53,613 nt of DNA, from positions 1 to 53,613 of IMG/VR virus record IMGVR_UViG_3300009184_002810. One strand, written 5' to 3'. Source of the DNA: a virus (Duplodnaviria > Caudoviricetes). Below, piece by piece: positions 1 through 28,511 of this stretch. How positions within the stretch are numbered: position 1 is the first letter of the stretch; each line of letters begins with the position of its first letter. The position numbers and the translations under genes were made by a program. Below the pieces are notes generated by a model that did not search any database, was not told the origin of the DNA, and saw only the letters and a program-made list of their open reading frames with translations.

Positions 1-1214
1 CCTTTTCCGTCTGATACTGCATAGTCAATTAGTATTGAATCATATACAACTAAAAGAACTTTACTTTGCTTATCTTTTAGGTAATCTTTTAACTTATTTA
101 GTTTTTTTACGTTATTTACCGTTTCTAGGCATTGAATATAGTAGTTAAATAGTTTTTGAGGATTAGCGTTTTCTTGAGTAAGCTTTCTACCGTTTGGTAA
201 CTCTAAAAAACCGTTATTTGTATATGCAGTCCATATAGCTCTTACCGTATGATATACGTCTTCGAAGAATTCAATGTGCATATACTCCTCCTCTACTCCG
301 TTATACATCTGCCTAAATGTAATTTTCTTAGCTTCTTGGTATTCTTCAGGTGTTAGTTCTTCTTTATTGAAGTATTGTTTACCTAAATACTCGTGAATTG
401 ATTGATCTTGTGGAATATCGGTGTACATTGCATCGGCAATTAACCTTATATGGTATCCATCAAAGTCAAACTCTACAAAAGCGTCGTTTTGCGGTATAAA
501 AGCCGTTCTAGAACCGTTTTCTTTATTAAAAGCAAGGAAGTTTATACTATTAAATGCATTAGTAGGACGTGAAGTAATGTTATATAGGTTATAACTTGAA
601 TAAACCCTACTATCCTTTAGAGATCTCCCTTTCCAAGGAGTTTCAAAGTACTTATCAAAGAGCTTTTCATCTACTAAGATTCCCTGCTCTTCTACCCATT
701 TATATACCCCAGTGTATTTAGCCTGCCATTCAGTATTCAATTCTTTTCCTACGTAGTCTCTAACCATTTCAAACATACATTCACATCTTTCGTAATGTTT
801 TGAGATTGGGATAAAGGTATTTACCTGTGGTGAGTACTTAAACTTCTCATAGAAGTCTAAATGCACTGGAGTATAACAATTAAAATCCTGTATTTTACCT
901 TCTATATCTAAAACAGTAAAGTATAGGTCTATAGAATTAGGTAAATCTAGATAGTAAGAATGCCACTTCTTATCTAATAAGTAAATTTTAGGAATACCCT
1001 TTAAAAAAGTCTGAATTTCATCAACAGGTAGAGAGAAAGCTTCTGAATGATTAATTGGAATAATATAGCCTTTCTCAAAATCATTGTAATATAAGACGCA
1101 CGGTGTAGTTAAGGCCGGATGAGTGTGTTCAGACATCGACATTAACTCGATAAAGCATTTTTCCGGTCTAGGTAGCTGTGAGAGCTGCTCTGCTGTCTCA
1201 ATAATGAAATACAT
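1..1214 (-). CDS. polA: Compact divergent family-A DNA polymerase (3' end runs off window; missing from ORF track)
   Basis: Manual translation from ATG at 1214 (MYFIIETAEQ...) stays open to the window edge. Motifs: YNITSRPTN (TGRLSS-like), motif A FDFDGYHIRL, motif B EAKKITFRQMYNG, motif C VVYDSIL. Confidence 0.8.
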   Translation of the reverse strand, partial: MYFIIETAEQLSQLPRPEKCFIELMSMSEHTHPALTTPCVLYYNDFEKGYIIPINHSEAFSLPVDEIQTFLKGIPKIYLLDKKWHSYYLDLPNSIDLYFTVLDIEGKIQDFNCYTPVHLDFYEKFKYSPQVNTFIPISKHYERCECMFEMVRDYVGKELNTEWQAKYTGVYKWVEEQGILVDEKLFDKYFETPWKGRSLKDSRVYSSYNLYNITSRPTNAFNSINFLAFNKENGSRTAFIPQNDAFVEFDFDGYHIRLIADAMYTDIPQDQSIHEYLGKQYFNKEELTPEEYQEAKKITFRQMYNGVEEEYMHIEFFEDVYHTVRAIWTAYTNNGFLELPNGRKLTQENANPQKLFNYYIQCLETVNNVKKLNKLKDYLKDKQSKVLLVVYDSILIDYAVSDGK

Positions 1215-8521: not shown

Positions 8522-8522
8522 C

Positions 8523-8753: not shown

Positions 8754-8755
8754 AA

Positions 8756-14265: not shown

Positions 14266-16365
14266 TTAACCGAATGTTACTCCAGTTGGTAATACGTTGA
14301 AATCTAATTGGATGTATTCAGCTGTTCTAGTTGGTTGTAAGTAAATAGCACCTACAAGTAAGTTTCTATCAATTACGTCCGGTGTGTTATTAGTCTCATC
14401 CATTACCACTCTGAATGCATATAAACCTTGTCTTTGTTGTACATACTCTAAGTAAGGGTTAACTTGAGATAAGAATTTATTTCTAGTTACAGCAGTATTT
14501 TGTTCGAATACTAATGTTTCTGCAATTTGACCAATATATCCTTTCAATGCAATTAATAATCTTCTAACATTTACTCTATCTAAAGCAGAAGCTCTAGCTT
14601 GTAAAGTCTTTTGACCATATACTACCGTACCTTGACCTGGGAATACTGCGATTGGGTTAACTTTAGCTGTATACAAAGTGTTTCTTTGTGCTACTGTTAA
14701 TCTTCTTTCAGGTTGGATTACTGTTGGTAAACCTCCTCTGTTAAGACCCGCAGGTGCAAACCACTCAGCAGATACCTTATCATTGTATTCGTATACTCCT
14801 GGAATAATAGTAGAAGCTGGTACGAAATGTAATCTACCTGTCTCTTGGGATCTTACTTGAACCCATGGCCAATAAGTAGCGCCGTAAGAATTGTCGTAAG
14901 ATTGAGCTCCAGTTGTTACTGTCGTAATATTTTGATTGTATCCAACCATATCTACTACTGCAACAGCATCACCGCGGTTTTGAACCGTGCTTAATAAAGC
15001 AGATACTTGGCTTGCAGCATTTTGATTAGTAATACCTGGTGCATAAATTGCATTATAAGCATAAGCATCTGAATTTGCAAGTAAGCTAATTGCTACATCG
15101 TAGTCATTATTAACTAAACCTTGAATATTATTAGCAGCAGCGGTTGCAGCTACTGTTGGAATTTGTTCGAATAAATTTAATGCAACAGAAGCACTTCCGT
15201 TTGATAATAAACCTCCGTATAAAGCACCAGTTGCGTTACTGAAAGATCCATTTACAGAACCGCTACCGTTTACAGGTATAGAAGCTGTGTATGCAGCATA
15301 TGCTTGTCCTTGTGGATTTAAATAGTTCGGTGTTGGCGTATTTACGTTAGATACTCTAATGTAATTAGATCTATTAGGGTAGCTGCCTGTTATATTTAAG
15401 TAAGCAGCGCCGCTTTCGTCGTAAGCTACGTTTTGAGCCTGATCTCCAATTACGTATGCAATATAGTTATTTTGATTTGGATCTAAAGATAAATTAGTCC
15501 AAGTCTCTAATACTGTTTGGCCTTGTGTATAATCGTTTCCTTGTCTAACAAGTAAGGTAAAGTACCCTGAAGCTGTATCAGCTTGAGTTACTTGCCATCT
15601 AACGTTGTTAGCAGAACCAGAAGGTAATAAACCATTAGTTGCTGTTGCTGATCCTTGGTTATTATTCATTACTGTACCTACTGATAGTGTTTCTAATTCA
15701 AAAGTATATGTAGGAGATATTCCGTTTGCAAAGGTTGCGGTAATAGAGCTAGTTGTATAGCTGAAGCTGTTACCTGCGGTTCCTTTTTCTTTTGCTGTAA
15801 AACTTACAGTGCTAGCAGAAGCATATGCAATAACACCAAGTGTACTAGTTAAAGTATTAACTTTAGTAGCAATGTTTGTTGCTGTTATTGCTGCTGTTGA
15901 ACCGGTTGTTACGTAGTATGTAGGAGCTGCATCTACCTGTGTAGTACTTGAAGTTACAAAAAATCGACTTACTGCAGATCCAGTTAATTGGAAGAAAGCG
16001 CTGTCTGTATAACTTGCTGATGTAAGCAAAGATGCTGTAAAACCAGTGTTATTAGGTACGTATGCGGTTGCTGCTGTATAAGAACCGCTCGCTACTCTTG
16101 CTACTAACAATGAAGTACCTCCTTGTTGGAAGTAGTTATATGCTGCTTGAGAAGTTAAGTATTCCTGTGTGTTACCTCCAGAAATGAAAGTAGTTCCGTA
16201 CTTAGCCTTATATTCAGAGTATGAAGTTACAAGAGTTGGTATATTTACTTTTCCTACTACTGTAGGGCCTATTAAAGCCGATCCTACTGTAATTGGACCT
16301 GCTGTTATTTGGGAAAGGTCGTTTTCTCTAAGGAAAACGCCAGGACTAATTAATGCTTCTGCCAT
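14266..16365 (-). CDS. Contractile tail sheath protein
   Basis: SPGVFLRENDLS N-terminus; YWPW, WFAPAGLNRG, VNPI, GQKTLQ, RVNVRRLL, FEQN, QPTRTAEYI. Confidence 0.95.
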   Translation of the reverse strand: MAEALISPGVFLRENDLSQITAGPITVGSALIGPTVVGKVNIPTLVTSYSEYKAKYGTTFISGGNTQEYLTSQAAYNYFQQGGTSLLVARVASGSYTAATAYVPNNTGFTASLLTSASYTDSAFFQLTGSAVSRFFVTSSTTQVDAAPTYYVTTGSTAAITATNIATKVNTLTSTLGVIAYASASTVSFTAKEKGTAGNSFSYTTSSITATFANGISPTYTFELETLSVGTVMNNNQGSATATNGLLPSGSANNVRWQVTQADTASGYFTLLVRQGNDYTQGQTVLETWTNLSLDPNQNNYIAYVIGDQAQNVAYDESGAAYLNITGSYPNRSNYIRVSNVNTPTPNYLNPQGQAYAAYTASIPVNGSGSVNGSFSNATGALYGGLLSNGSASVALNLFEQIPTVAATAAANNIQGLVNNDYDVAISLLANSDAYAYNAIYAPGITNQNAASQVSALLSTVQNRGDAVAVVDMVGYNQNITTVTTGAQSYDNSYGATYWPWVQVRSQETGRLHFVPASTIIPGVYEYNDKVSAEWFAPAGLNRGGLPTVIQPERRLTVAQRNTLYTAKVNPIAVFPGQGTVVYGQKTLQARASALDRVNVRRLLIALKGYIGQIAETLVFEQNTAVTRNKFLSQVNPYLEYVQQRQGLYAFRVVMDETNNTPDVIDRNLLVGAIYLQPTRTAEYIQLDFNVLPTGVTFG

Positions 16366-16981: not shown

Positions 16982-17425
16982 TTAATTCCTTTTAAATCCT
17001 AGACTATTAAACAGCTTAATAGATTTTTCATTCCATTCATCTACATCGGCGTATATCGGGTACTCGTTTTCGAATCTATTAATTATATCTGAGGTAAACT
17101 CCGTACCGGTGTAGCTCTTTGTTTTAACTCTATTTTTAACAAACAAATTGAATAAGTAACTACCGTTTTTGTAGTCTTTAAACCACACGTGTCCAAATAC
17201 CCCTGAATCTACTAGTCCAATATACATTCTCATATTATCTGAGATTCTACTGTTTGCCTCTTCTAAAGTAAACATCCTATTCCATTCAATCTCTAAGTTA
17301 AAATTATTTATCGAATCTAATATATACTGTCTGTTACTTTCAAAATTAATACAATCTACTTTAATTATCGTATACTCTATTCCTAAGGGAGTAAAATCGT
17401 TTTTGCTTAAACTAAATGATATCAT
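16982..17425 (-). CDS. GNAT-family acetyltransferase-like protein
   Basis: YLFNLFV...YADVDEWNEKSIKLFNSLGF matches the GNAT C-terminal N-x-x-S-x-x-L-F-x-x-L-G-F motif. Confidence 0.7.
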   Translation of the reverse strand: MISFSLSKNDFTPLGIEYTIIKVDCINFESNRQYILDSINNFNLEIEWNRMFTLEEANSRISDNMRMYIGLVDSGVFGHVWFKDYKNGSYLFNLFVKNRVKTKSYTGTEFTSDIINRFENEYPIYADVDEWNEKSIKLFNSLGFKRN

Positions 17426-17979
17426 ATTAATCTATTTGGAACTAAATCAACTCTATACCTGTGTCCGTAAGGAAAATCTTTATTCTCTAAATCTGGTAAA
17501 TTAATATAGTCTAATAGCCTTTGAAATCCGTTATTATAATACAGTTCTTCATAGGATACTTTAAAGTAATCTTTATCTAGGTAATCTCTCTTAATCCCTT
17601 CTTTTATTTGATTAAAAAAAGCTGCATCTTCATTTTTAACTAAATTTTCCTTAAACACCCACTGTTTATCCCAGCTATTCGTCTTACTTGCATTTAACCA
17701 GGACTGGGATTGTTCGTTTTCATTTTCTCTATATAAAATAATTACTTTATTAGCTATTTCTACTAATTCAGAGAAATCTACGGCTGGATAATAGGTCTCT
17801 TTAACTAGAAGATATTGAGTACTATACTTCCATAGCTTCGGAGATACTCTATTCTGATACCATTTCCTTTGTGGGCCTGTGATTGGTTCATATAGTATTG
17901 TAAACTCTCTCTTGTCTAAAAACCAATTAGCTAAGTTAGTAGATCCACTTCTAGGTTCACATAAAAGTAAGATTACCAT
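17422..17979 (-). CDS. Sulfotransferase (Stf0-like)
   Basis: 5'-PSB loop PRSGST; ILYRENENEQSQSW 3'-PB-like motif; SYEEL. Confidence 0.75.
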   Translation of the reverse strand: MVILLLCEPRSGSTNLANWFLDKREFTILYEPITGPQRKWYQNRVSPKLWKYSTQYLLVKETYYPAVDFSELVEIANKVIILYRENENEQSQSWLNASKTNSWDKQWVFKENLVKNEDAAFFNQIKEGIKRDYLDKDYFKVSYEELYYNNGFQRLLDYINLPDLENKDFPYGHRYRVDLVPNRLI

Positions 17980-17981
17980 TT

Positions 17982-18710
17982 TTAAAGTAGAGTTTTAATT
18001 TTTTTATAATCGGCAAACTTCTCATAAATACTATCGTACTTTTTTCTAAAGTTTTCTGTGTTTTTTAAACCGCATTCAAAATGTTGACTTGAATTTATCT
18101 TTTCTAACTTAAACGGCTTACCTAGTTTATTTGATACCCATTCCTCTAATTCTTTTAAATTTTTTATATCAAACCAAATTACGTTATTGTAATTTTCATG
18201 GTACTGTGACAGCGGGGGATACAAAATCTTAATAGCGTTTTCAGTATAAGGGTGCCATGATTTAATATTGAGGCGCTTCATAAAGTCGTAGAATATTCTA
18301 TTAACATCTTCTGGATTAGTTATATCGTTCGAAGTGTAAAAAAGTATATCGTCAACAGTTAGCTCTTTAAATATACTGTAATTAGCTACGTCTCTTACTC
18401 TGTGGATTTCATCTAAAATATGTTTCCATAAAGATATAAACTGGTCGTACCTATCTCTCTTTACAGATATAATGTCATATCCAGTACCAAACTTCCTTTC
18501 TAAGTTAAGTATACTTTCATGACCATGAGTTAAGCTGTCAGCTAACTCTTCATTCGTCATTTTTACTAAATCTACTCGGCGTTGATTTTCTATATCCCAA
18601 AAAGAGTTAAAATGTTCTATCTTAACATCCTGCTTTAAACAGGATATCATAAAGCTAGTAGAAGCACATCTCGGTAAAGAGATAAAATAAAACTTATTAT
18701 CAACTAACAC
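17982..18710 (-). CDS. Sulfotransferase family protein
   Basis: FISLPRCASTS; SVKRDRYDQFISLW (R-x7-S); KINSS. Confidence 0.75.
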   Translation of the reverse strand: MLVDNKFYFISLPRCASTSFMISCLKQDVKIEHFNSFWDIENQRRVDLVKMTNEELADSLTHGHESILNLERKFGTGYDIISVKRDRYDQFISLWKHILDEIHRVRDVANYSIFKELTVDDILFYTSNDITNPEDVNRIFYDFMKRLNIKSWHPYTENAIKILYPPLSQYHENYNNVIWFDIKNLKELEEWVSNKLGKPFKLEKINSSQHFECGLKNTENFRKKYDSIYEKFADYKKIKTLL

Positions 18711-19006
18711 TATAAGAGAGTTTTATTACTTTTATTTTTTTTCTCAAAGTACACTTCTTGATATTGAGTATCAGTATTAAGCCACTTATGTTGTGGACAG
18801 GCACTAAACTTCGGTGAGAATATTTTTTTGCTTAGAGGACATCCGCAATCGTCACAATACTCGTCATGAGTCACTGCCCTTGTTTCTCGGTAATGTTCAC
18901 ATTGTAAGCAGATACTATACCTCTTCTGAGCTATTTCTTTCTGTAGCGGAGATGGGTTGGCTGCTATTAGCCAGGACTTGGCTATTTCTCTTATGTCAAA
19001 ACTCAT
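18710..19006 (-). CDS. Small Cys-rich putative metal-binding protein
   Basis: RYSICLQCEH...CDDCGCPL..K.....ACPQHKW. Confidence 0.7.
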   Translation of the reverse strand: MSFDIREIAKSWLIAANPSPLQKEIAQKRYSICLQCEHYRETRAVTHDEYCDDCGCPLSKKIFSPKFSACPQHKWLNTDTQYQEVYFEKKNKSNKTLL

Positions 19007-19018
19007 ATTAGTACTACT

Positions 19019-19108
19019 CTATGAATTAGCAGTAACAACTAGGCTTCCTATTTGAGTCATTACAGCGTTCATACTATTTATTTCTTCTTGTGTAAGTATC
19101 TTTGTCAT
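19019..19108 (-). CDS. Unannotated 29-aa peptide MTKILTQEEINSMNAVMTQIGSLVVTANS
   Basis: Manual translation; fills the gap between 19127 and 19006 with an A-rich start context. Confidence 0.55.
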   Translation of the reverse strand: MTKILTQEEINSMNAVMTQIGSLVVTANS

Positions 19109-19126
19109 ATAATTTATATTTTAATA

Positions 19127-20617
19127 TTAACAACATGCTCCGCATGTTCCCCAAGGTTGCCACCAAGCAGCACCTTGACAGCAATAACCTTTAGGGCAAT
19201 CAGTGCACTGTTGCCAACATGCTCCGCAGTTAAGACTGTAGTAGTAGCAGCTAATAACGTTGTGCTCTATAGCAACATAGGAACTAGAAGTATCTCCACT
19301 TTCTTTAGTCAAGAACAAGTGAGCTCTTTCTACTGTCATATCCCATCCTTTAAAGAATTTCATTTCAGTTTCAGTACTTTCAATAACTTTTTCAGTAAAA
19401 GAAACTACGTCTGGATTAGAGCTATCGATTAATAGAAACTTATCTCCTGCTACTAGTTGCTGTGATGGAAGGAATCTGATCTCACCGTCTCTTTCAACTA
19501 GGTAGTTTGATACAGCGTAGTCCACCCAATCCGTACTATCCGTAAATTTAAGAGTTACTAGCTGAGTTCTTGCGCTCATTCGTTTCTTAAAAGTTATAGC
19601 GTTAGTGCTATAAGTGGTTCCTGCTACTAGTTCATCGTAAGTTATTCTATAATTTGCTAAGTCGTTTGCGTTATCAACACTAAATGGGTTTGGAATATCT
19701 ATAGTCTTTAATAAATCTCCAACCTGTAATTCAGCTGCTGTTTTAAAAGTCCCGTCAGCCATCTCAACTAAATCTGTATCGTCTAATTTAGGTTTAAACA
19801 CTCTTTCAGTGCCAGTTACGTACTGTTCTCTAAATTCTGATTTTAATTCAGTATTCTCATATTCAGCATTACCGTAAACACTATTTTCGCATATCTTATG
19901 GTAAGCTCCTATAGAAATAGATTCTAAGTCTGGTGGAAATAGTATATTTAAGGATCTAACAACAGATATATGTTCTTCTTGAATATTTTTATCGTTATAA
20001 TAGTATGGCATTAAGAAGTACCCTGCTGTTAAACTAGCGGCTAGGCTGTTTAACTCCTCTTGAGTCGTTATTCTATATAACTTAGGGTACACCTCTTTAT
20101 CGTAACTAGGTAAAATAGCTTTTACTAAAAAATTAGGGTGAATACCATTATCGATTATAGTACTAATATTGTTAACTAATGCTCCTTCTGCATCCAAATA
20201 TGCAAATTCATGTCCAAATGTCGATGTTTTAATCAGGTTTAGGAAATTAACCTTATCTTTACAGTACGTATCGTCTATTAAAGCTGTTGTATCGTATGCA
20301 CTTCTTATGATTAATACATCCTCTGCATCTTCGATGTTAGGTATAGTAATTGCTCCGGCTTTTAATACGTGCATCTCACATGGAATAGTTACGGAACTTG
20401 TAAGTTGATTAAAAAAAGAACTAACATTTCCTATATATTCGATTTTACTAAAAGCTTTCTCATTAACAAAAGCAGATAAAGCTGTTAAATCTAATGTTTC
20501 GGCATCTGACTCCAATTTGTCGTACCCGTTCCAGCCGATACTGGTATTAATCTCTATTGGCTTTAAATTTCCTTCATTGTCATACATGAAGTCTGTACCT
20601 AATAATACTGTTCTCAT
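19127..20617 (-). CDS. Circularly permuted ATP-grasp-like domain + Hint domain + C-terminal 43-aa Cys-rich peptide
   Basis: N-terminal GTDF...PIEINT, later DK, LVK and VVRS. Hint 19259-19789 (LVEMADGTFKTAAELQVGD ... WDMTVERAHLF ... IEHN). Tail VISCYYYSLNCGACWQQCTDCPKGYCCQGAAWWQPWGTCGACC at 19130-19258. Confidence 0.75.
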   Translation of the reverse strand: MRTVLLGTDFMYDNEGNLKPIEINTSIGWNGYDKLESDAETLDLTALSAFVNEKAFSKIEYIGNVSSFFNQLTSSVTIPCEMHVLKAGAITIPNIEDAEDVLIIRSAYDTTALIDDTYCKDKVNFLNLIKTSTFGHEFAYLDAEGALVNNISTIIDNGIHPNFLVKAILPSYDKEVYPKLYRITTQEELNSLAASLTAGYFLMPYYYNDKNIQEEHISVVRSLNILFPPDLESISIGAYHKICENSVYGNAEYENTELKSEFREQYVTGTERVFKPKLDDTDLVEMADGTFKTAAELQVGDLLKTIDIPNPFSVDNANDLANYRITYDELVAGTTYSTNAITFKKRMSARTQLVTLKFTDSTDWVDYAVSNYLVERDGEIRFLPSQQLVAGDKFLLIDSSNPDVVSFTEKVIESTETEMKFFKGWDMTVERAHLFLTKESGDTSSSYVAIEHNVISCYYYSLNCGACWQQCTDCPKGYCCQGAAWWQPWGTCGACC

Positions 20618-20651: not shown

Positions 20652-20861
20652 CTACTTCCTCACCCCGTATTTGATCCATTTATACCAAACTCTTTCGTGT
20701 ATATAATACTGAATAGGTTTATATATTAATTCCGCTATTCCAAATGCGGCGCCTACCTTAATAGATCCGCTTATCAACCACATTAATAGGAATCCGATTA
20801 AAGTACTTACGATTCTGTAGCTAATTGTCTTAGCTATGTGTCTTTTTCTCTCTACTACCAT
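20652..20861 (-). CDS. DUF2061-like small membrane protein
   Basis: RHIAKTISYR...YYIHERVW pattern. Confidence 0.75.
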   Translation of the reverse strand: MVVERKRHIAKTISYRIVSTLIGFLLMWLISGSIKVGAAFGIAELIYKPIQYYIHERVWYKWIKYGVRK

Positions 20862-21244
20862 AACTTACCCTCCTTTTTCATCTGTTCCCTAATTTGAGTA
20901 GCTGAAATATCGTGTATTTCTTGAGGTGGTACATGTTCTATAACGTCGTACCCGATTCCTCTACCGATATTAACTGATTCAATATCAGGAATAATGATAA
21001 TTTTTACTTTTCCTTCAGATACTAAGTCTATTAACGCTGTAGCGAGATTCATTAGAACCTCGTGTGCAGTCCAAGGATTCTTCTCGTCCGGCTCTACGTC
21101 TCTAATACAGAGTAGTACTTTTTTGCCTTCGTTTAAAGCCTGATCTATTAACCAGCGATGTCCATCATGCCAAGGTTGCCATCTTCCAATAAACATTGCA
21201 TAACCTTTACCGTTACTATTTCCTTTTGCTAGTATATTTTTCAT
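20855..21244 (-). CDS. HIGH-motif nucleotidyltransferase (cytidylyltransferase-like; candidate minimal sulfate adenylyltransferase)
   Basis: GRWQPWHDGH, KNPW, ISATQIR; coupled to the APS kinase gene. Confidence 0.75.
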   Translation of the reverse strand: MKNILAKGNSNGKGYAMFIGRWQPWHDGHRWLIDQALNEGKKVLLCIRDVEPDEKNPWTAHEVLMNLATALIDLVSEGKVKIIIIPDIESVNIGRGIGYDVIEHVPPQEIHDISATQIREQMKKEGKLW

Positions 21245-21678
21245 AAATTTAATTTTTGTCTTAATTCTTGAAATACTTCGAATTCCCCTCGACTTGTCGT
21301 ATCAATATCTATAAAATTCTCCGATGGAGCTTGATAATCAACTACGAAATAACTTTCTCTACCTCTAATACTCGTAGTATGTACGTATACCTCTTTAATA
21401 CTGGCTCCCATAGCTTCCTTAAAGGAATCTCTTTGATCTTTATAAGGTGATACCAGTGATACAATAGCTACTTCCCCTTTGTGATGAAGAAATTTAGCTA
21501 TGTTTTGTGCAAGTTCTATATTCTTTCTTCTACCTATTTCAGAGTAGTCTTTATTATCAAAGATCGCTCTTATATCATCACCGTCTACAATAGTAGCTTT
21601 ACCTGCAAAATGTGCTTCTAGCCATTTAGCTAGTGTTGTCTTACCTGCTCCGGGCTGTCCTGTTAACCATACTACCAT
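21241..21678 (-). CDS. cysC: Adenylyl-sulfate (APS) kinase
   Basis: WLTGQPGAGKTT, DGDDIR, YSEIGRRKN, SLVSPY, YQAP. Confidence 0.9.
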   Translation of the reverse strand: MVVWLTGQPGAGKTTLAKWLEAHFAGKATIVDGDDIRAIFDNKDYSEIGRRKNIELAQNIAKFLHHKGEVAIVSLVSPYKDQRDSFKEAMGASIKEVYVHTTSIRGRESYFVVDYQAPSENFIDIDTTSRGEFEVFQELRQKLNL

Positions 21679-21686
21679 ATTGCTCT

Positions 21687-23243
21687 TTATTTTTTAAAAA
21701 ACATCTGATTATTAATAACTAATATGTCTATATCTGTCTCTAAAAACGTCTTCAAGGCATCTTCAGGATATAGTATCATTGTCTTATCTTTTACATTAAA
21801 AGAAGTATTAAGTAGAATCGGGAAGCCACTTAGCTTTTCAAAACGTGTTAATAACTCGTACATGCTAGTCGCTTGATTGTAAACAGTTTGTATTCTTGCT
21901 GTACCATCTATGTGAGTTACTGCTTTTAACTTATCTCTGTATTCCTCTTTTACCTTTACTACTTGATTCATGTAAGGAACAAAGTCCTCTGATTCAAAAT
22001 ACTTGCTTTGTGCAGACTGAATAACCATTGGTGCAAAAGGTCTAAACATTTCACGCTTTTTAATAAGCTTATTTATTCGGTCTTGCATTCCCGGTAAAGT
22101 TGGATTAGCTAGAATACTTCTATGTCCCAAAGCACGTGCTCCGAACTCAATCCTACCTTCATACCATCCTACTACCTTACCTTTGTATAATTCTTTTGCT
22201 ATAACTTTTAGATCTAAAATTTCTGCGTTACACATCGTAAGGTCGTATCCCGGTCCTAAAAAAGGATCCTGCTCTATACGGTGACCTATAAAATTAGTAC
22301 AGGCACCGATACATGAACCTGCATCAGAAGGTGCAACAGGTATCCAAATATTCTTATAAGGAGTATTTTCTCTTATTTTACCGTTTGCAGAGCCGTTGTA
22401 AGCACATCCTCCGCTTAAGCATAAATTCTCTCCTGGATATTGATTTAAAAAATGAAATAATGCTTTTTCGTATATCCATTGGAGGGATGCTGCAATGTCT
22501 TTGTGTCTTTGTAGTACTGGTTCATCAGGAAGTCTATTATCTCCTAGCAATTCTACTAAATAGTGATTAAACATTACTCTATTACTCTTATCCCAAGTAA
22601 AGTACTTCATGTCTATCTGTAATCCTCTCTTATAGTTTACTAATTTTCTAAACTTTCCTCTATACTTTGTTGAATTTCCGTAAGAAGCTAGTCCCATTAC
22701 CTTATACTCACCTTCGTTTGGTTTAAACCCTAGGTAAGCGGTGATAGCTGAGTATAGTAGCCCTAAAGAGTGAGGATATTTGACAGTAAGTTCAGGAACA
22801 ACCTCTCCATTCACCATTCTTACTACTCTTAACGTCTCTTCTTCCCCGACTCCGTCAATACTAACTAGAGTTGCATCTGTAAAGGGAGAACTATGGTAAG
22901 CATACATTAAATGAGACATGTGATGTTCAGAAAAGAACACGGTATTACTAAGCTTCTTTAGTTTAACCCATGCTTTAATGCCTGTCCATAAAATTCTAGG
23001 TATAGAACTCCAGTTGTGCTTCAAAGCTCTTAATAACTTCAAGTGTGGCTTTTCATAATAACATACTACATCGAATTTATCTGTGTAGTTATCCTTAATA
23101 TACTGTATTGCATTAACGGGGAAAGAAGAATCATGCTTTATTCCTGTAAATTTCTCTTCTTCACATGCAAATACGAGTTTTCCGTCCTGAAATAAGCAAG
23201 CTGCGGAGTCGTGGTAATATGCTGATATTCCTAATACGTTCAT
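21687..23243 (-). CDS. Carbamoyltransferase (NodU/CmcH/TobZ family)
   Basis: YHDSAA, EHHMSH, DGVGE, EYKVMGLASYG, SGGCAYN, EFGARALGHRS, RPFAP, THIDGTARIQTV, LNTSFN. Confidence 0.95.
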   Translation of the reverse strand: MNVLGISAYYHDSAACLFQDGKLVFACEEEKFTGIKHDSSFPVNAIQYIKDNYTDKFDVVCYYEKPHLKLLRALKHNWSSIPRILWTGIKAWVKLKKLSNTVFFSEHHMSHLMYAYHSSPFTDATLVSIDGVGEEETLRVVRMVNGEVVPELTVKYPHSLGLLYSAITAYLGFKPNEGEYKVMGLASYGNSTKYRGKFRKLVNYKRGLQIDMKYFTWDKSNRVMFNHYLVELLGDNRLPDEPVLQRHKDIAASLQWIYEKALFHFLNQYPGENLCLSGGCAYNGSANGKIRENTPYKNIWIPVAPSDAGSCIGACTNFIGHRIEQDPFLGPGYDLTMCNAEILDLKVIAKELYKGKVVGWYEGRIEFGARALGHRSILANPTLPGMQDRINKLIKKREMFRPFAPMVIQSAQSKYFESEDFVPYMNQVVKVKEEYRDKLKAVTHIDGTARIQTVYNQATSMYELLTRFEKLSGFPILLNTSFNVKDKTMILYPEDALKTFLETDIDILVINNQMFFKK

Positions 23244-23363: not shown

Positions 23364-23395
23364 GTAATATATGCTTTTTTTAAATTAATTCCAAA
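23364..23395 (-). promoter_or_regulatory. Putative Bacteroidota-type promoter for the carbamoyltransferase-cysC operon
   Basis: TTTG-N20-TATATTAC, only 4 nt before the ATG at 23359. Confidence 0.45.
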
Positions 23396-24126
23396 TATTT
23401 TTGTATTTCTTCTCGTAAAAAGTAAGGATTCATTGGAAATTGTATACTAATCCCCCAGCTTTCTAGGAAAGTATCATGGTAATCACGGGCATTAAATACA
23501 GCCGCTACCGAATTAAGGTTGTGTATTTCGTCTTTAACATTATCATATACAAATAACGTCTTTTCATCTGACATAACCATGTGTAGTTTGTAGGTATGCT
23601 TTATTGTTTGCCAGTACTCCTCGCCAAGCTTTGCCTTTTCCACTGCTTCGAAGTCTAGGTCTATTGCATTATACTCTGGATTAACATCTTCAAGCTTAGT
23701 TACAATCTTAAAGTCCGCTTTATTCTTTAACAACTCCCAATATCCTGTTTTGAGGTGTTGTTTATAGTCTAGAATTAAAGAATTACATGCAGTTATATTT
23801 GGAAGTGCAGGTTGCCAGTCGTGATGTAATAAGACGGAGTTATGTTCTTTGCTACTCCACCTAATGTTGAAAGGAACTACTTCTTTAGCAAACACTGAAA
23901 TATACTCCCAAGTTTTAGGTAATGCTTCTCTCTGTCTTTTTTGAAACTCTTCATCTGCATTCCAATCAGTTCCATTAAAACCTACGAAAGTTTCTACGTT
24001 TTCTTCGTCTTGCTTCTGTTTGTACTGTGCAAGCTCTTGTTTTGCCGCTATAAACTTACTATTCTCAACAAAATCTTGTAGAGATATAAACGGAACCTTA
24101 ATACTGTTTTTAATTAGTCCAATCAT
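23380..24126 (-). CDS. Putative Fe(II)/2-oxoglutarate (aspartyl beta-hydroxylase-like) oxygenase; start revised to 24126
   Basis: LLHHDW (HxD), KLHMVM, AVFNARDYHDT (distal His); ATG lies 20 nt from the promoter motif. Confidence 0.5.
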   Translation of the reverse strand: MIGLIKNSIKVPFISLQDFVENSKFIAAKQELAQYKQKQDEENVETFVGFNGTDWNADEEFQKRQREALPKTWEYISVFAKEVVPFNIRWSSKEHNSVLLHHDWQPALPNITACNSLILDYKQHLKTGYWELLKNKADFKIVTKLEDVNPEYNAIDLDFEAVEKAKLGEEYWQTIKHTYKLHMVMSDEKTLFVYDNVKDEIHNLNSVAAVFNARDYHDTFLESWGISIQFPMNPYFLREEIQKYLELI

Positions 24127-24145
24127 TTTTATTGTTTTTATACTA

Positions 24146-24159
24146 ATAAATATATTTAT
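24146..24159. promoter_or_regulatory. Palindromic bidirectional TATTTAT promoter (ATAAATATATTTAT)
   Basis: Perfect 14-bp palindrome, 20 nt from each of the divergent ATGs at 24126 and 24179. Confidence 0.65.
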
Positions 24160-24178
24160 ATACAGTAATAAGTTATAA

Positions 24179-24724
24179 ATGAGTAATAAATGGGATGAGT
24201 TCATAGAAACTCCATCAAATAAGTTCGGTTATGAAGTACCAGTATTCACTCCCTCAATCTACAGGGAATATAGAGGTGAGATATTCACTACATTCCATAG
24301 TGAAGAGCATCCTGTAATGAGACATGTACATTATGAAAAAAGTGAGCTTAGTATTCACGGTAGATTCTCTAAATCTTATAAAGGCGTCTTAAGAGGATTG
24401 CACTACGACAACAAAACTTGGAAATTAGTCCAAGCACTTGTTGGTGATCTTTACTTAGTAGTACTAGATGTAAGAGAAGCGTCTTCAACATACGGTGAAT
24501 GGGAGTCTTTTTTACTAACTGAAAGGAGTAGGAATCAAGTTTTAGTTCCTCCTGGTTTTGCTAACGGTCATTACGCTTTAACTGACTGTGTTTTCCATTA
24601 TAACTTACTGTACAAAGGAGAATATGTTGATTCTATAGATCACGGAGTTGTTAAGTGGAATGATCCAGAGTTTCAAATAGAATGGCCTACAGATAATCCA
24701 ACTCTACAAAAGAAAGACAAATGA
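24179..24724 (+). CDS. rmlC: dTDP-4-dehydrorhamnose 3,5-epimerase family
   Basis: SYKGVLRGLHY, VVLDVR, LVPPGFANGH, WNDPE..IEWP. Confidence 0.9.
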   Translation: MSNKWDEFIETPSNKFGYEVPVFTPSIYREYRGEIFTTFHSEEHPVMRHVHYEKSELSIHGRFSKSYKGVLRGLHYDNKTWKLVQALVGDLYLVVLDVREASSTYGEWESFLLTERSRNQVLVPPGFANGHYALTDCVFHYNLLYKGEYVDSIDHGVVKWNDPEFQIEWPTDNPTLQKKDK

Positions 24725-25302
24725 TACAAGATTTAATTGCATTTGAAAGAAAAATAGCAGATCACTGGGAAGCTGGTAGGATAAAAGGTCCAGTACATCT
24801 TAGTGGAGGTAATGAAAAAGAGCTTATTGAAATTTTTAAAGACGTAAAACAGGGTGATTGGGTATTTTCAACTTGGAGATCTCATTACCATGCATTATTA
24901 AAAGGCATAGACCCTTCTTGGCTAGAAAAAGAGATACTAGAAGGTAGGTCTATTACTATTGTTAATCAAGAACATAACTTTTACTCTTCGGCTATTGTAG
25001 GAGCTATTATACCTATAGCGGTAGGTGTTGCAATGCAATTAAAAGCTTCAAGCAGTGAAAATAAAGTATGGGTCTTTATAGGTGATATGGCTTTTGAAAC
25101 AGGTCAATTCTATGAGATGCATAAATACGTTACAAATCACGGGTTACCGGTACAGTTTGTAGTTGAAGATAATGGTGTATCAACAAATACTCCTACAGTT
25201 GAAACATGGAAGGTTCAAAAACCTATTCCAGATAATGTAATTTATTACAAATACGAAAAACAGTGGCCGCACTACGGAACAGGAAAATGGGTAATGTTTT
25301 AA
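24721..25302 (+). CDS. TPP-dependent enzyme, E1-alpha-like subunit
   Basis: GPVHLSGGNE, STWRSHYHAL, SAIVG, TPP motif GDMA...EDN. Confidence 0.85.
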   Translation: MIQDLIAFERKIADHWEAGRIKGPVHLSGGNEKELIEIFKDVKQGDWVFSTWRSHYHALLKGIDPSWLEKEILEGRSITIVNQEHNFYSSAIVGAIIPIAVGVAMQLKASSSENKVWVFIGDMAFETGQFYEMHKYVTNHGLPVQFVVEDNGVSTNTPTVETWKVQKPIPDNVIYYKYEKQWPHYGTGKWVMF

Positions 25303-26297
25303 TCACAGGTATTACAGGTATGGTAGGTTCTCACCTAGCTGATTTCTTATTAGAGAATACAGACTGGAAGATTTACGGTTTTCTAAGGTGGAATGATAAC
25401 TTAGAAAATATAGAGCACTTATCTGATACTATAAATAAAGGTAAAAGAATCAAATTAATATACGGAGACTTAAATGACATGTGTTCTTTAATAAATGCTG
25501 TTAATATATCCAAGCCAAATTACGTCTTTCATCTAGCAGCACAGTCTTATCCTCAAACAAGTTTTATATCTCCTATTGAAACGTTACAAACGAACATTAT
25601 AGGTACAGCTAACCTACTTGAAACACTAAAAAACTCTAAGTATAGTGATGCTAAGATACATGTTTGTTCTTCCAGTGAGATATTCGGTAAGGTTTCAAAA
25701 GATAAACTTCCAATAAACGAAGAGTGTTCAATACACCCAGCATCTCCTTATGCTATTTCAAAATGCGGTACAGATTTACTGGGTAAGTACTACGCTGAAG
25801 CATTCGATATGCAGATTATGACTACTAGAATGTTTACTCACACTGGTCCAAGACGTGGTGATGTATTTCATGAGTCTACTTTTGCAAAACAAATTGCAAT
25901 GATTGAAGCAGGATTACAGGAACCTAAGATCTACGTTGGTAATTTACAATCTTTAAGAACTTATGCTGATGTGAGAGATGCAGTTAAAGCTTACTACTTG
26001 CTTTTAACAGTTAATCCTACTGCAGGTGAGTATTACAATATAGGAGGAGAGTATACTTGTACAGTAGAAGAAACTTTATACCATTTAGTTAGACTTTCTA
26101 CGGTATCTAATATTCAAATAGTTGTTGACCAGGAAAGGTTAAGGCCTATAGATGCTGATTTGCAATTACCAGATACTTCTAAGTTTAAAAACCATACAGG
26201 TTGGAAGCCAGAAATATCTTACGAAACAACTATGCTAGATTTATTAAATTATTGGAGAGATAAAATAAAAACCGGACGTAAATTTTTAAGACGATGA
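25287..26297 (+). CDS. gmd: GDP-mannose 4,6-dehydratase-like extended SDR (start revised to ATG 25287)
   Basis: ITGITGMVGSHL, HLAAQS, SSSE, SPYAISK, VGNL...R...DVRD. Confidence 0.8.
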   Translation: MGNVLITGITGMVGSHLADFLLENTDWKIYGFLRWNDNLENIEHLSDTINKGKRIKLIYGDLNDMCSLINAVNISKPNYVFHLAAQSYPQTSFISPIETLQTNIIGTANLLETLKNSKYSDAKIHVCSSSEIFGKVSKDKLPINEECSIHPASPYAISKCGTDLLGKYYAEAFDMQIMTTRMFTHTGPRRGDVFHESTFAKQIAMIEAGLQEPKIYVGNLQSLRTYADVRDAVKAYYLLLTVNPTAGEYYNIGGEYTCTVEETLYHLVRLSTVSNIQIVVDQERLRPIDADLQLPDTSKFKNHTGWKPEISYETTMLDLLNYWRDKIKTGRKFLRR

Positions 26298-26836
26298 GTA
26301 CACCGCAATATACCCCTTATAAAGATGCTTTAACTAAAGCAATGGATACTTTAGGGCAATTCAGCTTCACTAATTTTATAGGTCAACAAATATTATGGCC
26401 AGGTAATCCTATGAGTACTACTTTAGGAGGAGTTCCTAAGCATAAAATGGTTGAAGTACCAGTTATGGAGGAATCTCAAATGGGAATGTCTCTCGGTTTA
26501 GCAATGGCAGGTAGATTTGTAATTACCTTCTATCCTCGTTGGGACTTCTTAATCTGTGCTACTAACCAACTAGTTAATCATGTTGATAAATTAAAACCGA
26601 TGAGTGGTTGGAATGTAGATATGATCATTAGAGTAGGTAAAGGATCAGATAAGCCCTTAGATCCAGGACATCAGCATAAAGGTAACTACTTAGAAGAGTT
26701 TAAATCAATGTGTAAGAATATAGAATTTCATAACTGCCTTACTTGGCAAGATATAGACTTGGCTTACGCTTACGCTACAAACTCCGGAGGTATAAATGTT
26801 ATTGTTGAGTATCCGGAGTTGTATTATTCCAGCTAA
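26294..26836 (+). CDS. TPP-dependent enzyme, E1-beta / transketolase pyrimidine-binding subunit
   Basis: EVPVMEESQMGMSLGLA, DFLICATNQLVN, GHQH. Confidence 0.85.
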   Translation: MSTPQYTPYKDALTKAMDTLGQFSFTNFIGQQILWPGNPMSTTLGGVPKHKMVEVPVMEESQMGMSLGLAMAGRFVITFYPRWDFLICATNQLVNHVDKLKPMSGWNVDMIIRVGKGSDKPLDPGHQHKGNYLEEFKSMCKNIEFHNCLTWQDIDLAYAYATNSGGINVIVEYPELYYSS

Positions 26837-27230
26837 CTTCCCAAACTTGCATATCAGCTGCCAAACAGTCAATCTTATAGTCCTTTCTACCGCCTGCTAC
26901 TTCTTGAATCTTATTCTTAGCTGTATTACGAATACCGTTTAGTCCGTGGGTTAGTTCTAAAGTGTTACCGTCTTTAATTCCTTTACGTACATTAGATTCG
27001 TTATGCCAGATATGCAAATTCATCTGTGCAAGGACTATAATTGCTCTAATTGTTTCTGCTGTTACTACTCCTTTCTGTTCGTTAAGCGCTAATTGTACGT
27101 CATGAGTGATATCTGCAATCTCTTGTGCATATTCAGCTTTATGTTCAGGTATGAAAACCTCTTTTAACTGTACAATACTTAATCTGTCTACTAATTCACT
27201 TAAGGTAGGTAAATACTTTCTGTCTGTCAT
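26799..27230 (-). CDS. Hypothetical helical protein often found in glycan loci (DUF6165/DUF4254-like)
   Basis: SELVDRLSIVQLK...NLHIWHNE...NGIR...KNKI pattern. Confidence 0.55.
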   Translation of the reverse strand: MTDRKYLPTLSELVDRLSIVQLKEVFIPEHKAEYAQEIADITHDVQLALNEQKGVVTAETIRAIIVLAQMNLHIWHNESNVRKGIKDGNTLELTHGLNGIRNTAKNKIQEVAGGRKDYKIDCLAADMQVWEVSWNNTTPDTQQ

Positions 27231-27589
27231 TATATGTTTATTTTATTAATTCCAAAATCTCGTTCTAAAGTTATTGCTACTGCTGTCTCTTCAGTGCTAT
27301 TAGGTTTATAGTCGTTAATTAGCACTCTTACTCCTCCTCCTATACCCATAATCAATTGATCATAGAATATTCCTGCTGATTCTAACTGTTCTACGGTAAT
27401 TTTTCTCATAGACTCTTTTCTTCCTGTAGTTAGGATAATGTTATACCCTTTCTTATCCCATTCTAATAACTTCTCTACAGTACCAGGTAGAACTTTAGGT
27501 TTAAAACCGTAAAAGCTTGCTCCTGGGGGGAAATGCTCGAGTAATGTTCCGTCTATATCGCAAAAAATTGTTTTAGGCCTAATATCCAT
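27230..27589 (-). CDS. Capless HAD-family phosphatase
   Basis: CDIDGT, LTTGR, YDQLIMG, IND. Confidence 0.85.
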   Translation of the reverse strand: MDIRPKTIFCDIDGTLLEHFPPGASFYGFKPKVLPGTVEKLLEWDKKGYNIILTTGRKESMRKITVEQLESAGIFYDQLIMGIGGGVRVLINDYKPNSTEETAVAITLERDFGINKINI

Positions 27590-28511
27590 TTAATCTATGT
27601 TTTATTGTATCTTTAACAATGTTATTTATGTCTTTCTTTAAGGTTAGCTTACCGTAATTATAATGTCCGCATACTCTTATTACCGTATCTTTATCGTTTA
27701 TATCAAACTCCGGCGTAACCCATCGCTCCCACTTTCTAGACTCTACACACACCTTATAAAAAGCGTTTTTTTCTACTTCGCTCATATGTTCTAGATATAC
27801 TTCTGTTTCAAGCTGTATTAATTCAGGCCCTATATTAATAGCATCTATTCCAGCATGGAATCTCATATCTTTTTCTTCCTTTGATAAGTAATCACCGTTA
27901 TGCTCCTTAGTCTTTTTTCCGTACTCTTTACATACCCTAACCATAGCTGATAAAGGTTCTGTTAAAAACTTACTTGTATTCTTTCTGCTTACTAAATCTA
28001 TCTTAACTCCAGACTGTACTACTACATATTCTATATTATCAAACGCTTCTGCAGAAAAAAACCTTAGGTCTGAAAGTATAGCTCGGTATTCTTTATAATT
28101 GAATTGCTTAATAGCAGCTTCTGTTAGTACTTCGTATTTTACTTTAGGATTATGCTGATATAACTCTAGCAAAGTATTATTAGTTAGGCTTAATCCTTCT
28201 GAAATAGACTTAGCTTGCTTCCAGGGGTCAATATGTATTATATCAAAGTAGTTTAAATCATCTCTATAAGAAACAAGTCCGTTATCCTCAACTGTTCCTT
28301 GAGAAGGTCCTCCATGGTCTCTCTCTAATATAATACTACTATTTTTACTTTTAACGTAATCGTAAAAACTTTTCGTATTCCATCCGTTAACATATCCGCC
28401 GTCATAATCTACTTGACGTCTAGTTACTGCAAAGCCAAAGTCAGTAGAGTCTAGCACACAGACAGTATCTACAATATTTTTCGACATCGGACAAATAAAG
28501 TACTTAGCCAT
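27579..28511 (-). CDS. GatZ/KbaZ-like TIM-barrel (tagatose-phosphate epimerase/aldolase family)
   Basis: ERDHGGP, IHIDP, VVVQSG, KEHNGDY, AINIGPE. Confidence 0.75.
   Translation of the reverse strand: MAKYFICPMSKNIVDTVCVLDSTDFGFAVTRRQVDYDGGYVNGWNTKSFYDYVKSKNSSIILERDHGGPSQGTVEDNGLVSYRDDLNYFDIIHIDPWKQAKSISEGLSLTNNTLLELYQHNPKVKYEVLTEAAIKQFNYKEYRAILSDLRFFSAEAFDNIEYVVVQSGVKIDLVSRKNTSKFLTEPLSAMVRVCKEYGKKTKEHNGDYLSKEEKDMRFHAGIDAINIGPELIQLETEVYLEHMSEVEKNAFYKVCVESRKWERWVTPEFDINDKDTVIRVCGHYNYGKLTLKKDINNIVKDTIKHRLNGY

Follow-up and report, generated by a model that had tools for sequence, protein, structure and literature searches.

A phage protein family that combines a permuted ATP-grasp fold, a Hint domain without its first nucleophile and a fast-evolving, cysteine-rich tail

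Enzymes of the GspS and glutathione synthetase type join an amine to a small peptide whose C-terminal carboxylate they activate, and ATP-grasp enzymes of other kinds (those of the graspetides, such as the microviridins, the peptide ligase PGM1, RimK/TTL and LysX with its partner LysW) form an amide on peptides made by the ribosome or at the C-terminus of a protein. Among Hint domains, those with a cysteine at position 1 (Cys1) cut or splice at their own N-terminus, and cleavage by cyclization of the terminal asparagine, uncoupled from splicing, is known from intein mutants and from BIL domains. Here we describe a protein that carries both folds on one chain and that we propose to be a single-chain enzyme and cargo precursor of an uncultured freshwater myovirus. 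It is encoded in a DNA stretch of 53,613 nucleotides (positions 1 to 53,613 of the IMG/VR record IMGVR_UViG_3300009184_002810), which we refer to as the window. We call the protein AGH, a name used here for the ATP-grasp/Hint/Cys-rich-tail protein, and the AGH of the window P0001. Its folds are known, and their combination is not described in any system whose defining features could be tested.

19127..20617, minus strand: the AGH gene, 496 amino acids (aa) plus stop, with ATP-grasp, Hint and Cys-rich tail (translation of the open reading frame [ORF]).

The best structural matches to AGH residues 1-272 are GspS, YgiC/YjfC and eukaryotic glutathione synthetase, which have the same permuted order, with the E-x-N strand ahead of the strand that bears the ATP-binding Lys. 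Unlike the members of this group, AGH has no sequence-family match, lacks the preceding 90-300 residues and is fused to a Hint domain. The enzymes of the graspetides, PGM1, RimK/TTL and LysX are non-permuted and not fused to their substrate; LysX/ArgX-LysW and RimK gave weak matches to AGH in the structural comparison program VIA (Z ∼5). Graspetides, moreover, have a separate leader-bearing precursor, whereas the cargo of AGH is fused to the enzyme and the ATP-grasp is permuted, which places AGH outside that class.

On the Hint side, AGH shares the fold with inteins but has no position-1 nucleophile, no class-3 block-F Cys, no block-B T-x-x-H and no +1 nucleophile. Like BIL and PT-HINT domains, it combines a Hint fold with a terminal His-Asn, a non-nucleophilic residue thereafter, a variable flank and a predicted autoproteolytic release of the C-terminal module. 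Unlike them, its first Hint domain has no conserved C/S/T at position 1 and no block-B His, and it is accompanied by no secretion or toxin domain. With polymorphic toxin systems it shares only the layout of a Hint domain followed by a variable C-terminus, since neither secretion, toxin nor variable immunity genes were found (Pfam, 85 members) and the protein encoded beside AGH, Zn98, is conserved. The Tetrahymena BUBL proteins, whose BIL domains (PDB 6tmm and 6y75) conjugate a ubiquitin-like domain to Lys, are similar in that a Hint-type domain would build a protein conjugate instead of splicing, and they rank among the top structural matches to AGH. However, BUBL uses a Cys1 thioester and no ATP-dependent ligase, whereas AGH lacks Cys1 and has an ATP-grasp.

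What is new is thus the combination, which comprises a minimal permuted ATP-grasp, a Hint domain predicted to perform C-terminal cleavage only, a hypervariable, Cys-rich cargo that always contains Lys, in some members a further self-cleaving domain, a constant zinc-ribbon-like partner and a block of enzymes that share a C-terminal tetrapeptide. The initial annotation of the window knew of no described system built in this way, and none was found in the literature searched. Neither an ATP-grasp-Hint fusion nor the AGH family is described in the full texts covered or in the passages on ATP-grasp and HINT proteins of a jumbo-phage comparison (PMC7824862), although a passing mention elsewhere is possible.

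The AGH family is large, and the features described here lie far outside chance. At least 716 clusters (90% identity) were recovered at E ≤ 1e-3 from 7999 candidates scored, and at 50% identity there were 263 representatives, 86 of them with E ≤ 1e-30. The 120 homologues listed are 473 to 568 aa long and are all unnamed or "hypothetical." The 73 AGH-related loci that we distinguished lie on viral contigs, the longest of which has 335 kb. P0001 itself matched only DUF1617 in Pfam (E 0.032, under the cut-off of that family) and nothing in PHROGs; tblastn against 50,697 cultured-phage records, from which close relatives of the window may be missing, yielded no match at 1e-3, and a PDB sequence-profile search with the whole protein returned only the Ataxin-1 AXH domain (E 0.73). 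In cellular genomes (one per species), near-family patterns picked out nine candidate stretches, none of which encodes an AGH relative. The source record is a linear viral metagenome sequence, ∼18% complete by CheckV, and the DNA of the window was found again in freshwater and lake metagenomes. Its phage is myovirus-like, with a tail sheath gene at 14266-16365 as well as baseplate hub and tail-fibre genes; the closest cultured relative of the sheath protein belongs to a Flavobacterium phage (45.7% identity). In what follows, residue counts out of 108 refer to diverse full-length AGH homologues, down to 22-23% identity, counts out of 85 to AGH members scanned with Pfam at E ≤ 0.01, counts out of 120 (or 119 tails) to near relatives of the window AGH, and counts out of 71 to diverse short tails of ≤70 aa.

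19802..20617, minus strand: permuted ATP-grasp-like ligase domain, residues 1-272 (structural matches in VIA and Foldseek).
20546..20593, minus strand: D9...E22-x-N24, presumed Mg2+-ligand triad at the extreme N-terminus (conservation and motif).
20120..20122, minus strand: K166 in the PNF(I/L)xK strand, presumed ATP-phosphate-binding Lys (role assigned from the motif).
19955..19957, minus strand: R221, invariant Arg of the ligase domain (108/108), with a putative role in the ligase.

The initial annotation had recognized in this ORF ligase motifs in permuted order, an assignment that both motif conservation and structural alignments bore out. D9, E22 and N24 (GTDF...PIEINT) come first and are followed by D121-K122, L164-V165-K166 and V219-V220-R221-S222. 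E22, N24, R105, D115, P178 and R221 were kept in 108/108 homologues, K166 and P161 in 107, and D9, N162 and T25 in 106. AlphaFold modelled the whole protein with a predicted local distance difference test score (pLDDT) of 76.6 and residues 1-275 alone with a pLDDT of 84.3 and a predicted template modelling (TM) score of 0.82. When the domain model was compared by VIA, a search that does not depend on Foldseek, ranks 1 to 10 were all ATP-grasp or ATP-grasp-like (Z 7.4 to 5.4), and the first unrelated fold appeared at rank 12 (Z 5.2); with the whole model, ATP-grasp entries came after the Hint matches, starting at rank 27. GspS (2io7) scored Z 8.1 with the whole model (201 residues, root mean square deviation [rmsd] 4.5) and Z 7.4 with the domain model (207 residues, rmsd 4.9), and YgiC scored 7.9 and 7.0, respectively. 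Foldseek gave the domain model 33 matches at E ≤ 1e-3 (best, 1.8e-5), which among the matches listed were all glutathione synthetase, GspS, YgiC/YjfC or glutathione-synthetase-like, and the whole model led to the same picture. Structure neighbours of the ligase domain in the ESM Atlas included GSH_synth, GSP_synth and CP_ATPgrasp clusters (TM 0.54 to 0.56). Also in the top rows of VIA were two Methylobacillus GspS-like proteins, glutathione-synthetase-like effectors and Cp1B, which is an E-64 ligase according to PMC12568646.

The permutation is seen in the alignment ranges. Permuted enzymes align from residue 1 of the model (for GspS 2io7, model 1..272 corresponds to chain 308..609), whereas the classical ATP-grasps compared (RimK, LysX/ArgX, DdlA, DcsG, BacD, synapsin and TTLLs) start to align only at about residue 55 and at their own N-termini (RimK 4iwx, 55..272 = -1..217; LysX/ArgX, 57..272 = 1..206). 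AGH residues 1-54, with D9, E22 and N24, would thus correspond to the C-terminal part of classical ATP-grasps. The ATP-grasp call gains confidence because such entries top the domain search, the ESM Atlas neighbours agree and the alignment ranges display the permutation. We conclude that residues 1-272, as judged from their predicted structure and its moderate scores, are a circularly permuted ATP-grasp of the GspS/eukaryotic glutathione synthetase type, which by sequence constitutes a new branch of the ATP-grasps. By their motifs, D9 and E22-x-N24 are presumed to be Mg2+ ligands and K166 the ATP-binding Lys; the spacing of 13 and 2 residues in D9/E22/N24 fits the arrangement of the Mg ligands in classical ATP-grasps.

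19259..19789, minus strand: Hint domain, residues 277-453, with no N-terminal nucleophile and no block-B His (VIA, Foldseek and column counts).
19259..19264, minus strand: H452-N453, the presumed site of Asn cyclization, with the cut between N453 and V454 (conservation; codons read).

The second fold, a Hint domain, lies exactly where it had been placed initially. With residues 274-453, VIA found the NpuDnaB intein (4o1r, Z 12.4), 4o1s (12.3), BIL2 (6tmm, 12.2), 2lwy (12.0) and hedgehog (1at0, 11.2, over 277..453), the ranges for 4o1r and 4o1s covering AGH residues 274-452, and the best Foldseek match had an E value of 2.9e-6. K277 is the AGH position that aligns with residue 1 in hedgehog and in six solved inteins, whose ends align with AGH residues 451 to 453, as does that of hedgehog. 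Structural comparison by VIA and Foldseek thus recovered both of the folds anticipated for AGH.

Position 277 is Cys in 0/108 homologues (His in 31, Lys in 17, Leu in 14, Ile in 9, Ser in 7 and Thr in 5). Columns 278 to 431 never exceed 6 His or 4 Cys among the 108, so that a block-B His is absent, as is a class-3 block-F Cys. The terminal residues are kept, H452 in 103/108 and N453 in 107/108, and block-F position 433 is Asp in 54 and His in 35. All 120 near relatives have both [IV]EHN and K277. The residue that follows the Asn (+1) is Cys in 1, Ser in 6 and Thr in 4 homologues (11/108 in total) and Val in the window AGH. The Lys at position 1, the missing block-B T-x-x-H, the terminal His-Asn and the Val at +1, all of which had been read from the window beforehand, were thereby confirmed, and family-wide the His-Asn is kept and the position-1 nucleophile lost. 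Since position 1 has no conserved Cys/Ser/Thr and the block-B His is missing, the first Hint domain of AGH would be limited to the C-terminal reaction. We conclude that it is not an intein but a Hint fold with a terminal His-Asn and a block-F Asp/His as in C-terminal-cleaving Hint domains, for which cleavage is predicted. The E-x-N motif of the ligase was present in all 108 full-length homologues, nearly always together with His-Asn, and the two domains were never seen apart there.

19130..19258, minus strand: fast-evolving 43-aa tail, residues 454-496, which holds 10 Cys but only one Lys (alignment and composition).
19190..19192, minus strand: K476, the only Lys of the tail, in a C-x-K motif (conservation in near relatives).

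The boundary between conserved and variable sequence lies exactly after N453. The tail of the window AGH, with its 43 aa, 10 Cys, 4 Tyr, 4 Trp and one Lys and with Val at +1, had been described correctly by the initial annotation; the AlphaFold model has a pLDDT below 50 over most of residues 452-494. In near relatives the tails are 27 to 112 aa long (median, 45) and contain 18% Cys, 13% Gly and 10.5% Tyr. Eight Cys were counted in 91 of these tails, 6 in 15, 10 in 13 and 9 in 1, and the number of Cys is even in 119/120 near relatives and in 69/71 diverse tails. The C-x-K motif was present in 120/120 near relatives. No tail lacked Lys, neither among the 119 near relatives nor among the 71 diverse short tails, of which 16.4 would be expected to lack it by composition; as a control, Arg was missing from 38/71 tails compared with 37.1 expected, i.e., as often as by chance. 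Exactly one Lys was found in 46/71 diverse short tails, and in 67/71 the Lys lies in C-x-K or among the last four residues. We conclude that a Lys in the AGH cargo is obligatory, and the new N-terminus is therefore not the only possible source of the amine.

The tail also evolves faster than the body of the protein while keeping its Cys framework, in line with what had been expected of the peptide after His-Asn. An identity of 80% in the body corresponds to 53% in the tail, and in the four distinct pairs where it was computable the ratio of nonsynonymous to synonymous substitution rates (dN/dS) was 0.17 to 0.48 in the tail and 0.06 to 0.14 in the body. Between loci L019 and L020 (AGH genes at 8001-9500), dN was 0.001 and dS 0.014 in the body, versus a dN of 0.114 and a dS of 0.239 in the tail, a contrast which suggests that the tail was exchanged as a cassette by recombination. 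A diversity-generating retroelement was rejected as the source of the variation in the window, since its 53.6 kb contain no template repeat of the tail and tail lengths vary; a crude YxDD scan of the window gave a single match, with no further sign of a reverse transcriptase. The only internal repeat found in the tail DNA is an exact direct repeat of 14 nucleotides, at 19131-19144 and 19215-19228, which codes for both C-G-A-C stretches.

What follows the His-Asn varies among the 108 representatives. It is mostly a Cys-rich peptide, with ≤70 aa in 71 of them. Four members (P0214, P0231, P0241 and P0247) have a minimal cargo of 3 to 7 aa in which Lys is still present, others have domains of 150 to 240 aa without a known family (the 224-aa tail of P0142 gave no usable match in the ESM Atlas), and the largest cargoes are extensions of 700 to 1240 aa with BACON, a domain found in P0177, P0179 and P0180. 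The small peptide whose release the initial annotation had foreseen is the usual form of the cargo, in that a Cys-rich peptide is the rule, but tails of 3 to 7 aa or of more than 1000 aa with BACON occur as well.

Two kinds of relatives carry a further domain behind the Cys-rich core. Peptidase_S74, an intramolecular chaperone domain, was found there in 7/85 members at E ≤ 0.01, and is absent from the window AGH; P0020 (24.5 bits) and P0201 (25.3 bits) exceed the gathering score of PF13884, which is 22, and in both the domain is C-terminal to the cargo. A second Hint domain (Intein_splicing and PT-HINT) was found in 8/85 members, five of which passed the gathering score. Together, the members with S74 or a second Hint above the Pfam gathering score are P0201, P0020, P0208, P0206, P0227, P0174 and P0178. 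The second Hint is canonical, in that it starts with Cys right after a Cys-rich core of ∼30 aa and ends in His-Asn and a short Lys-bearing end (KK, KKF, etc.); in this class the core is free of Lys, which comes only behind the second His-Asn. Cores of the S74 class either end in ...K-S just ahead of S74 or hold C-x-K.

S74 domains cut themselves at their N-terminal Ser. The Cys-rich core of both classes is thus bracketed by two self-cleaving elements, which is the strongest indirect argument that it is meant for excision, and it would be freed at both ends. These relatives also strengthen the case that the tail of AGH would be released. Those with a second Hint resemble engineered twin inteins in that the core is preceded by a Hint predicted to cleave at its C-terminus and followed by a Cys1 Hint that would act at its N-terminus, the arrangement by which laboratories release a peptide at both ends. 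Unlike in twin inteins, the arrangement is natural, the ATP-grasp is always present and the first residue after the His-Asn is not Cys; for this last reason, plain native chemical ligation is not expected in AGH relatives.

Downstream of AGH, three genes follow on the same strand.

18710..19006, minus strand: Zn98, a 98-aa zinc-ribbon-like protein ending in KTLL (same-strand synteny; phrog_13558).
17982..18710, minus strand: ST1, a 242-aa protein ending in KTLL (24/73 loci).
17422..17979, minus strand: ST2, a 185-aa protein ending in NRLI (27/73 loci).

Zn98 is encoded on the AGH strand in 72 of the 73 related loci, mostly directly downstream, sometimes 1 to 2 kb away and in three cases directly upstream. 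With 842 proteins its family is as large as that of AGH. C36, C51, C54, C56, C70, W12, W75 and K61 are invariant, and the protein has a K-T-L-L-type end. It matches phrog_13558, a family of unknown function (E 7.5e-10), and, weakly, zinc ribbons of the PDB (E 0.009 to 0.4). A partnership of AGH with Zn98 may resemble that of LysX with LysW, its small zinc-ribbon carrier protein, whereas the C-terminal residues are acidic in LysW and K-T-L-L in Zn98. The Zn98 proteins of L019 and L020 differ at only ∼3 of 100 residues, though the AGH tails of these loci differ strongly. A predicted complex of AGH and Zn98 scored 0.02 (mark, 0.32), a result that counts neither way. ST1 and ST2 are presumably sulfotransferase-like, ST1 by a P-loop-like motif and ST2 likewise by motif; Pfam searches gave no match for ST1 at E ≤ 5 and none for ST2. 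In the 120-bp spacer between AGH and Zn98, an ORF of 29 codons from ATG to TAG (19018-19107, minus strand) was read by eye. Four contigs of a lake metatranscriptome library (X6) are identical to parts of Zn98 and AGH (window 18814-20280), which is a hint of expression at best, as DNA carry-over is possible in such libraries.

The ends of Zn98, ST1 and ST2 belong to a wider pattern. A C-terminal [TS][LIM][LIFYM] was found in 303/1306 ORFs on the AGH strand versus 1/239 spurious ORFs on the opposite strand (73 loci and the window). We also counted the C-terminal motif [KN]-x-[LI]-[LIF] in distinct proteins of the AGH loci, binned by their distance from AGH:

0-2 kb downstream of AGH: 126/174 (72%).
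2-4 kb downstream: 68/127 (54%).
4-6 kb downstream: 29/94 (31%).
6-8 kb downstream: 7/44 (16%).
Bins upstream of AGH: 3-11%.

In the window, three of the four ORFs within 2 kb downstream of AGH end in this way. The carriers belong to at least ten unrelated families, including 2OG-Fe(II) oxygenases (64/73 loci), radical SAM proteins (44/73) and Zn98, with KTLL, KTLI and NKLI as example ends in the downstream block, and the motif is found neither on AGH itself nor on proteins of the block upstream. Because the codons of the last residues and the stop codons vary, the shared end is constrained at the protein level. The radical SAM protein (347 aa, L063:3904-4947 and 43 other loci), which ends in KTLI, is 80 to 95% identical between most loci and absent from the window; in most of these loci, the AGH is only ∼45 to 51% identical to that of the window. 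Maturation of the peptide by a radical SAM enzyme or a 2OG oxygenase was rejected as an obligatory step, as the respective genes lie downstream in 44 and 64 of the 73 loci but are absent from the window.

From the two folds and their conserved residues, the rapid change of the tail, the variant architectures and the genes nearby, we propose that AGH would release a cargo module by its Hint domain and use its ATP-grasp to place that module in an amide bond, a model to which we give an even chance. It involves three steps. The Hint domain, which has lost the N-terminal acyl-shift chemistry but kept the block-F and block-G residues, would cut between N453 and V454 by cyclization of Asn453 and so free the C-terminal module with a new alpha-amine. 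This module would be a peptide rich in Cys, Gly and Tyr that has one obligatory Lys and an even number of Cys, which would probably pair as disulfides upon oxidation; in some relatives, Peptidase_S74 or the second, Cys1-bearing Hint would free its C-terminal side too. The minimal permuted ATP-grasp would then spend ATP on a single amide bond in which the module takes part. Either the obligatory Lys or the new N-terminus would supply the amine, and the carboxylate would be the C-terminus of a peptide or protein, either that of the module itself, giving a cyclic or lariat product, or that of the co-encoded proteins with the [KN]-x-[LI]-[LIF] end. By analogy, a C-terminal carboxylate is favoured as the activated group because the nearest structural relatives act in this way. 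The initial annotation had considered the free N-terminus of the peptide as the amine, which is still a candidate next to the obligatory Lys, and a carboxylate on a virion protein, a glycan or a host target, to which the co-encoded proteins with the shared C-terminal motif are to be added as candidates. Candidate products are a peptide in cyclic or lariat form, a tag attached to the co-encoded motif proteins and a decoration of the virion.

Several observations weigh against this proposal. Uncoupled Asn cyclization is often slow in inteins. Structural support for the ligase is moderate: with the domain model alone all Z scores are below 8, a range in which VIA can reflect a common structural arrangement, and query-normalized TM scores are 0.37 to 0.46 with rmsd values of 4.5 to 6 Å. 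The ∼90 to 300 residues that stand before the aligned part in YgiC and GspS are missing from AGH. None of the Pfam ATP-grasp families (GSP_synth, GSH_synth_ATP, CP_ATPgrasp, ATP-grasp_x) matched any of the 85 members at E ≤ 0.01 or P0001 at E ≤ 10, a PDB profile search with the ligase domain gave 0 matches, and it is from their motifs that D9, E22, N24 and K166 are presumed to correspond to known ligands. Positive selection on the tail was rejected, as its dN/dS is below 1, and the tail is accordingly described as faster and cassette-like rather than as positively selected. Since the cargo spans 3 to 7 aa at one end and 700 to 1240 aa at the other, a peptide product cannot explain everything. 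Finally, 11/119 tails contain neither Asp nor Glu, one of which the cores of graspetides need, and a universal side-chain lactam of the graspetide type is thereby excluded.

A more specific form of the proposal is a protein-tagging system of the phage, comparable to ubiquitin or Pup, in which the Hint domain would free a fast-evolving, cystine-rich tag and the ligase would join the C-terminal carboxylate of [KN]-x-[LI]-[LIF] proteins to the single Lys or the new N-terminus of this tag. Candidate targets would be Zn98, the sulfotransferase-like proteins, the 2OG oxygenases and the radical SAM enzyme. We regard tagging in this specific form as distinctly improbable. As a close alternative, the ligase may turn the released module into a cystine-rich peptide that is either backbone-cyclic or a lariat.

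Three explanations of other kinds have to be considered. The variable module could be a surface or host-binding part of the virion, such as an adhesin or fibre tip, which either is attached covalently to a structural protein by the Hint-ligase core or is displayed with the whole of AGH in the virion. Cargo variants with domains typical of fibres and adhesins (Peptidase_S74 in 7/85 members; BACON in P0177, P0179 and P0180), the cassette-like change of the cargo (dS 0.014 in the body versus 0.239 in the tail of L019/L020) and the position of the AGH gene ∼2.8 kb from the tail sheath gene on the same strand would all fit such a role. However, AGH matches no structural family of PHROGs, the neighbouring genes encode enzymes rather than structural proteins, a Cys-rich peptide of 30 to 45 aa is small for a receptor-binding domain and members with tails of 3 to 7 aa would have nothing to show, so that we consider virion display unlikely, though with some real chance. 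It is rather improbable, in our estimate, that the Hint domain only frees a variable bioactive peptide (a toxin, an antimicrobial or a signal), in the manner of polymorphic toxins or bacteriocins, while the ATP-grasp works elsewhere, for instance in the neighbouring sulfation, carbamoylation or glycan pathway, and owes its fusion to coexpression alone. The order of a conserved N-terminal part, a Hint domain and a variable C-terminus is indeed that of PT-HINT polymorphic toxins (P0177 matches PT-HINT at E 3.4e-4), a hypervariable tail with a kept Cys framework recalls secreted toxin peptides, and the APS kinase and carbamoyltransferase genes upstream indicate small-molecule or glycan chemistry. 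Yet Pfam reveals in the 85 members neither a domain for secretion or trafficking nor any known toxin family, and Zn98 is conserved and does not covary with the tail in L019/L020, unlike an immunity protein. Nor would the explanation account for the obligatory Lys or for ATP-grasp and Hint never being apart in 108 full-length homologues.

No cleavage at all would be required if the Cys-rich tail stayed on the ligase as a metal-binding (Zn, Fe-S) or redox-sensing appendix and the His-Asn were kept for structural reasons. An even Cys count fits metal sites too, the bacterial cytoplasm is reducing and the partner Zn98 is itself zinc-ribbon-like. But the Hint fold does not need the His-Asn, which is kept (103 and 107 of 108) while the block-B His and residue 1 are lost, and a regulatory metal site is not expected to outpace the body, to vary in length or to give way to cargo of other kinds (S74, a second Hint, BACON). 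Of the explanations given here we find this one the least credible, and very doubtful.

If the proposed steps of release and ligation hold true, AGH would represent a widespread and previously unnoticed route by which phages free a fast-evolving Cys-rich peptide with no protease and with the ligase on the same chain. It would then add a novel class to the chemistry of ribosomal peptides or conjugates, provide a natural counterpart to the twin-intein release used in the laboratory and give Hint domains without their first nucleophile a new role. The C-terminal tetrapeptide common to unrelated adjoining enzymes suggests a recognition code, which can be tested directly, and the parts of AGH, being small and self-contained, are attractive as tools for protein engineering. 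The family accounts for many otherwise unannotated genes of freshwater viral metagenomes.

Upstream of AGH lies a further block of enzyme genes.

20652..23243, minus strand: upstream block of DUF2061, cytidylyltransferase-like, APS kinase and carbamoyltransferase genes (Pfam).

These four were found in 33, 32, 25 and 27 of the 73 loci, respectively, many of which are truncated. Beyond them, both strands of window 23380-31021 carry a cluster of sugar-nucleotide and modification genes. They encode dTDP-4-dehydrorhamnose epimerase-like and GDP-mannose-dehydratase-type epimerase proteins, split parts of a TPP enzyme (E1_dh, Transket_pyr), a HAD phosphatase, a shikimate-dehydrogenase-like protein, a cupin and a nucleotidyltransferase. 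Judging from this cluster, the phage of the window probably makes or alters a glycan. At the other end of the window, the final ∼100 residues of a 1458-aa protein (1919-6295, minus strand) match metallo-endopeptidase and tape-measure PHROGs.

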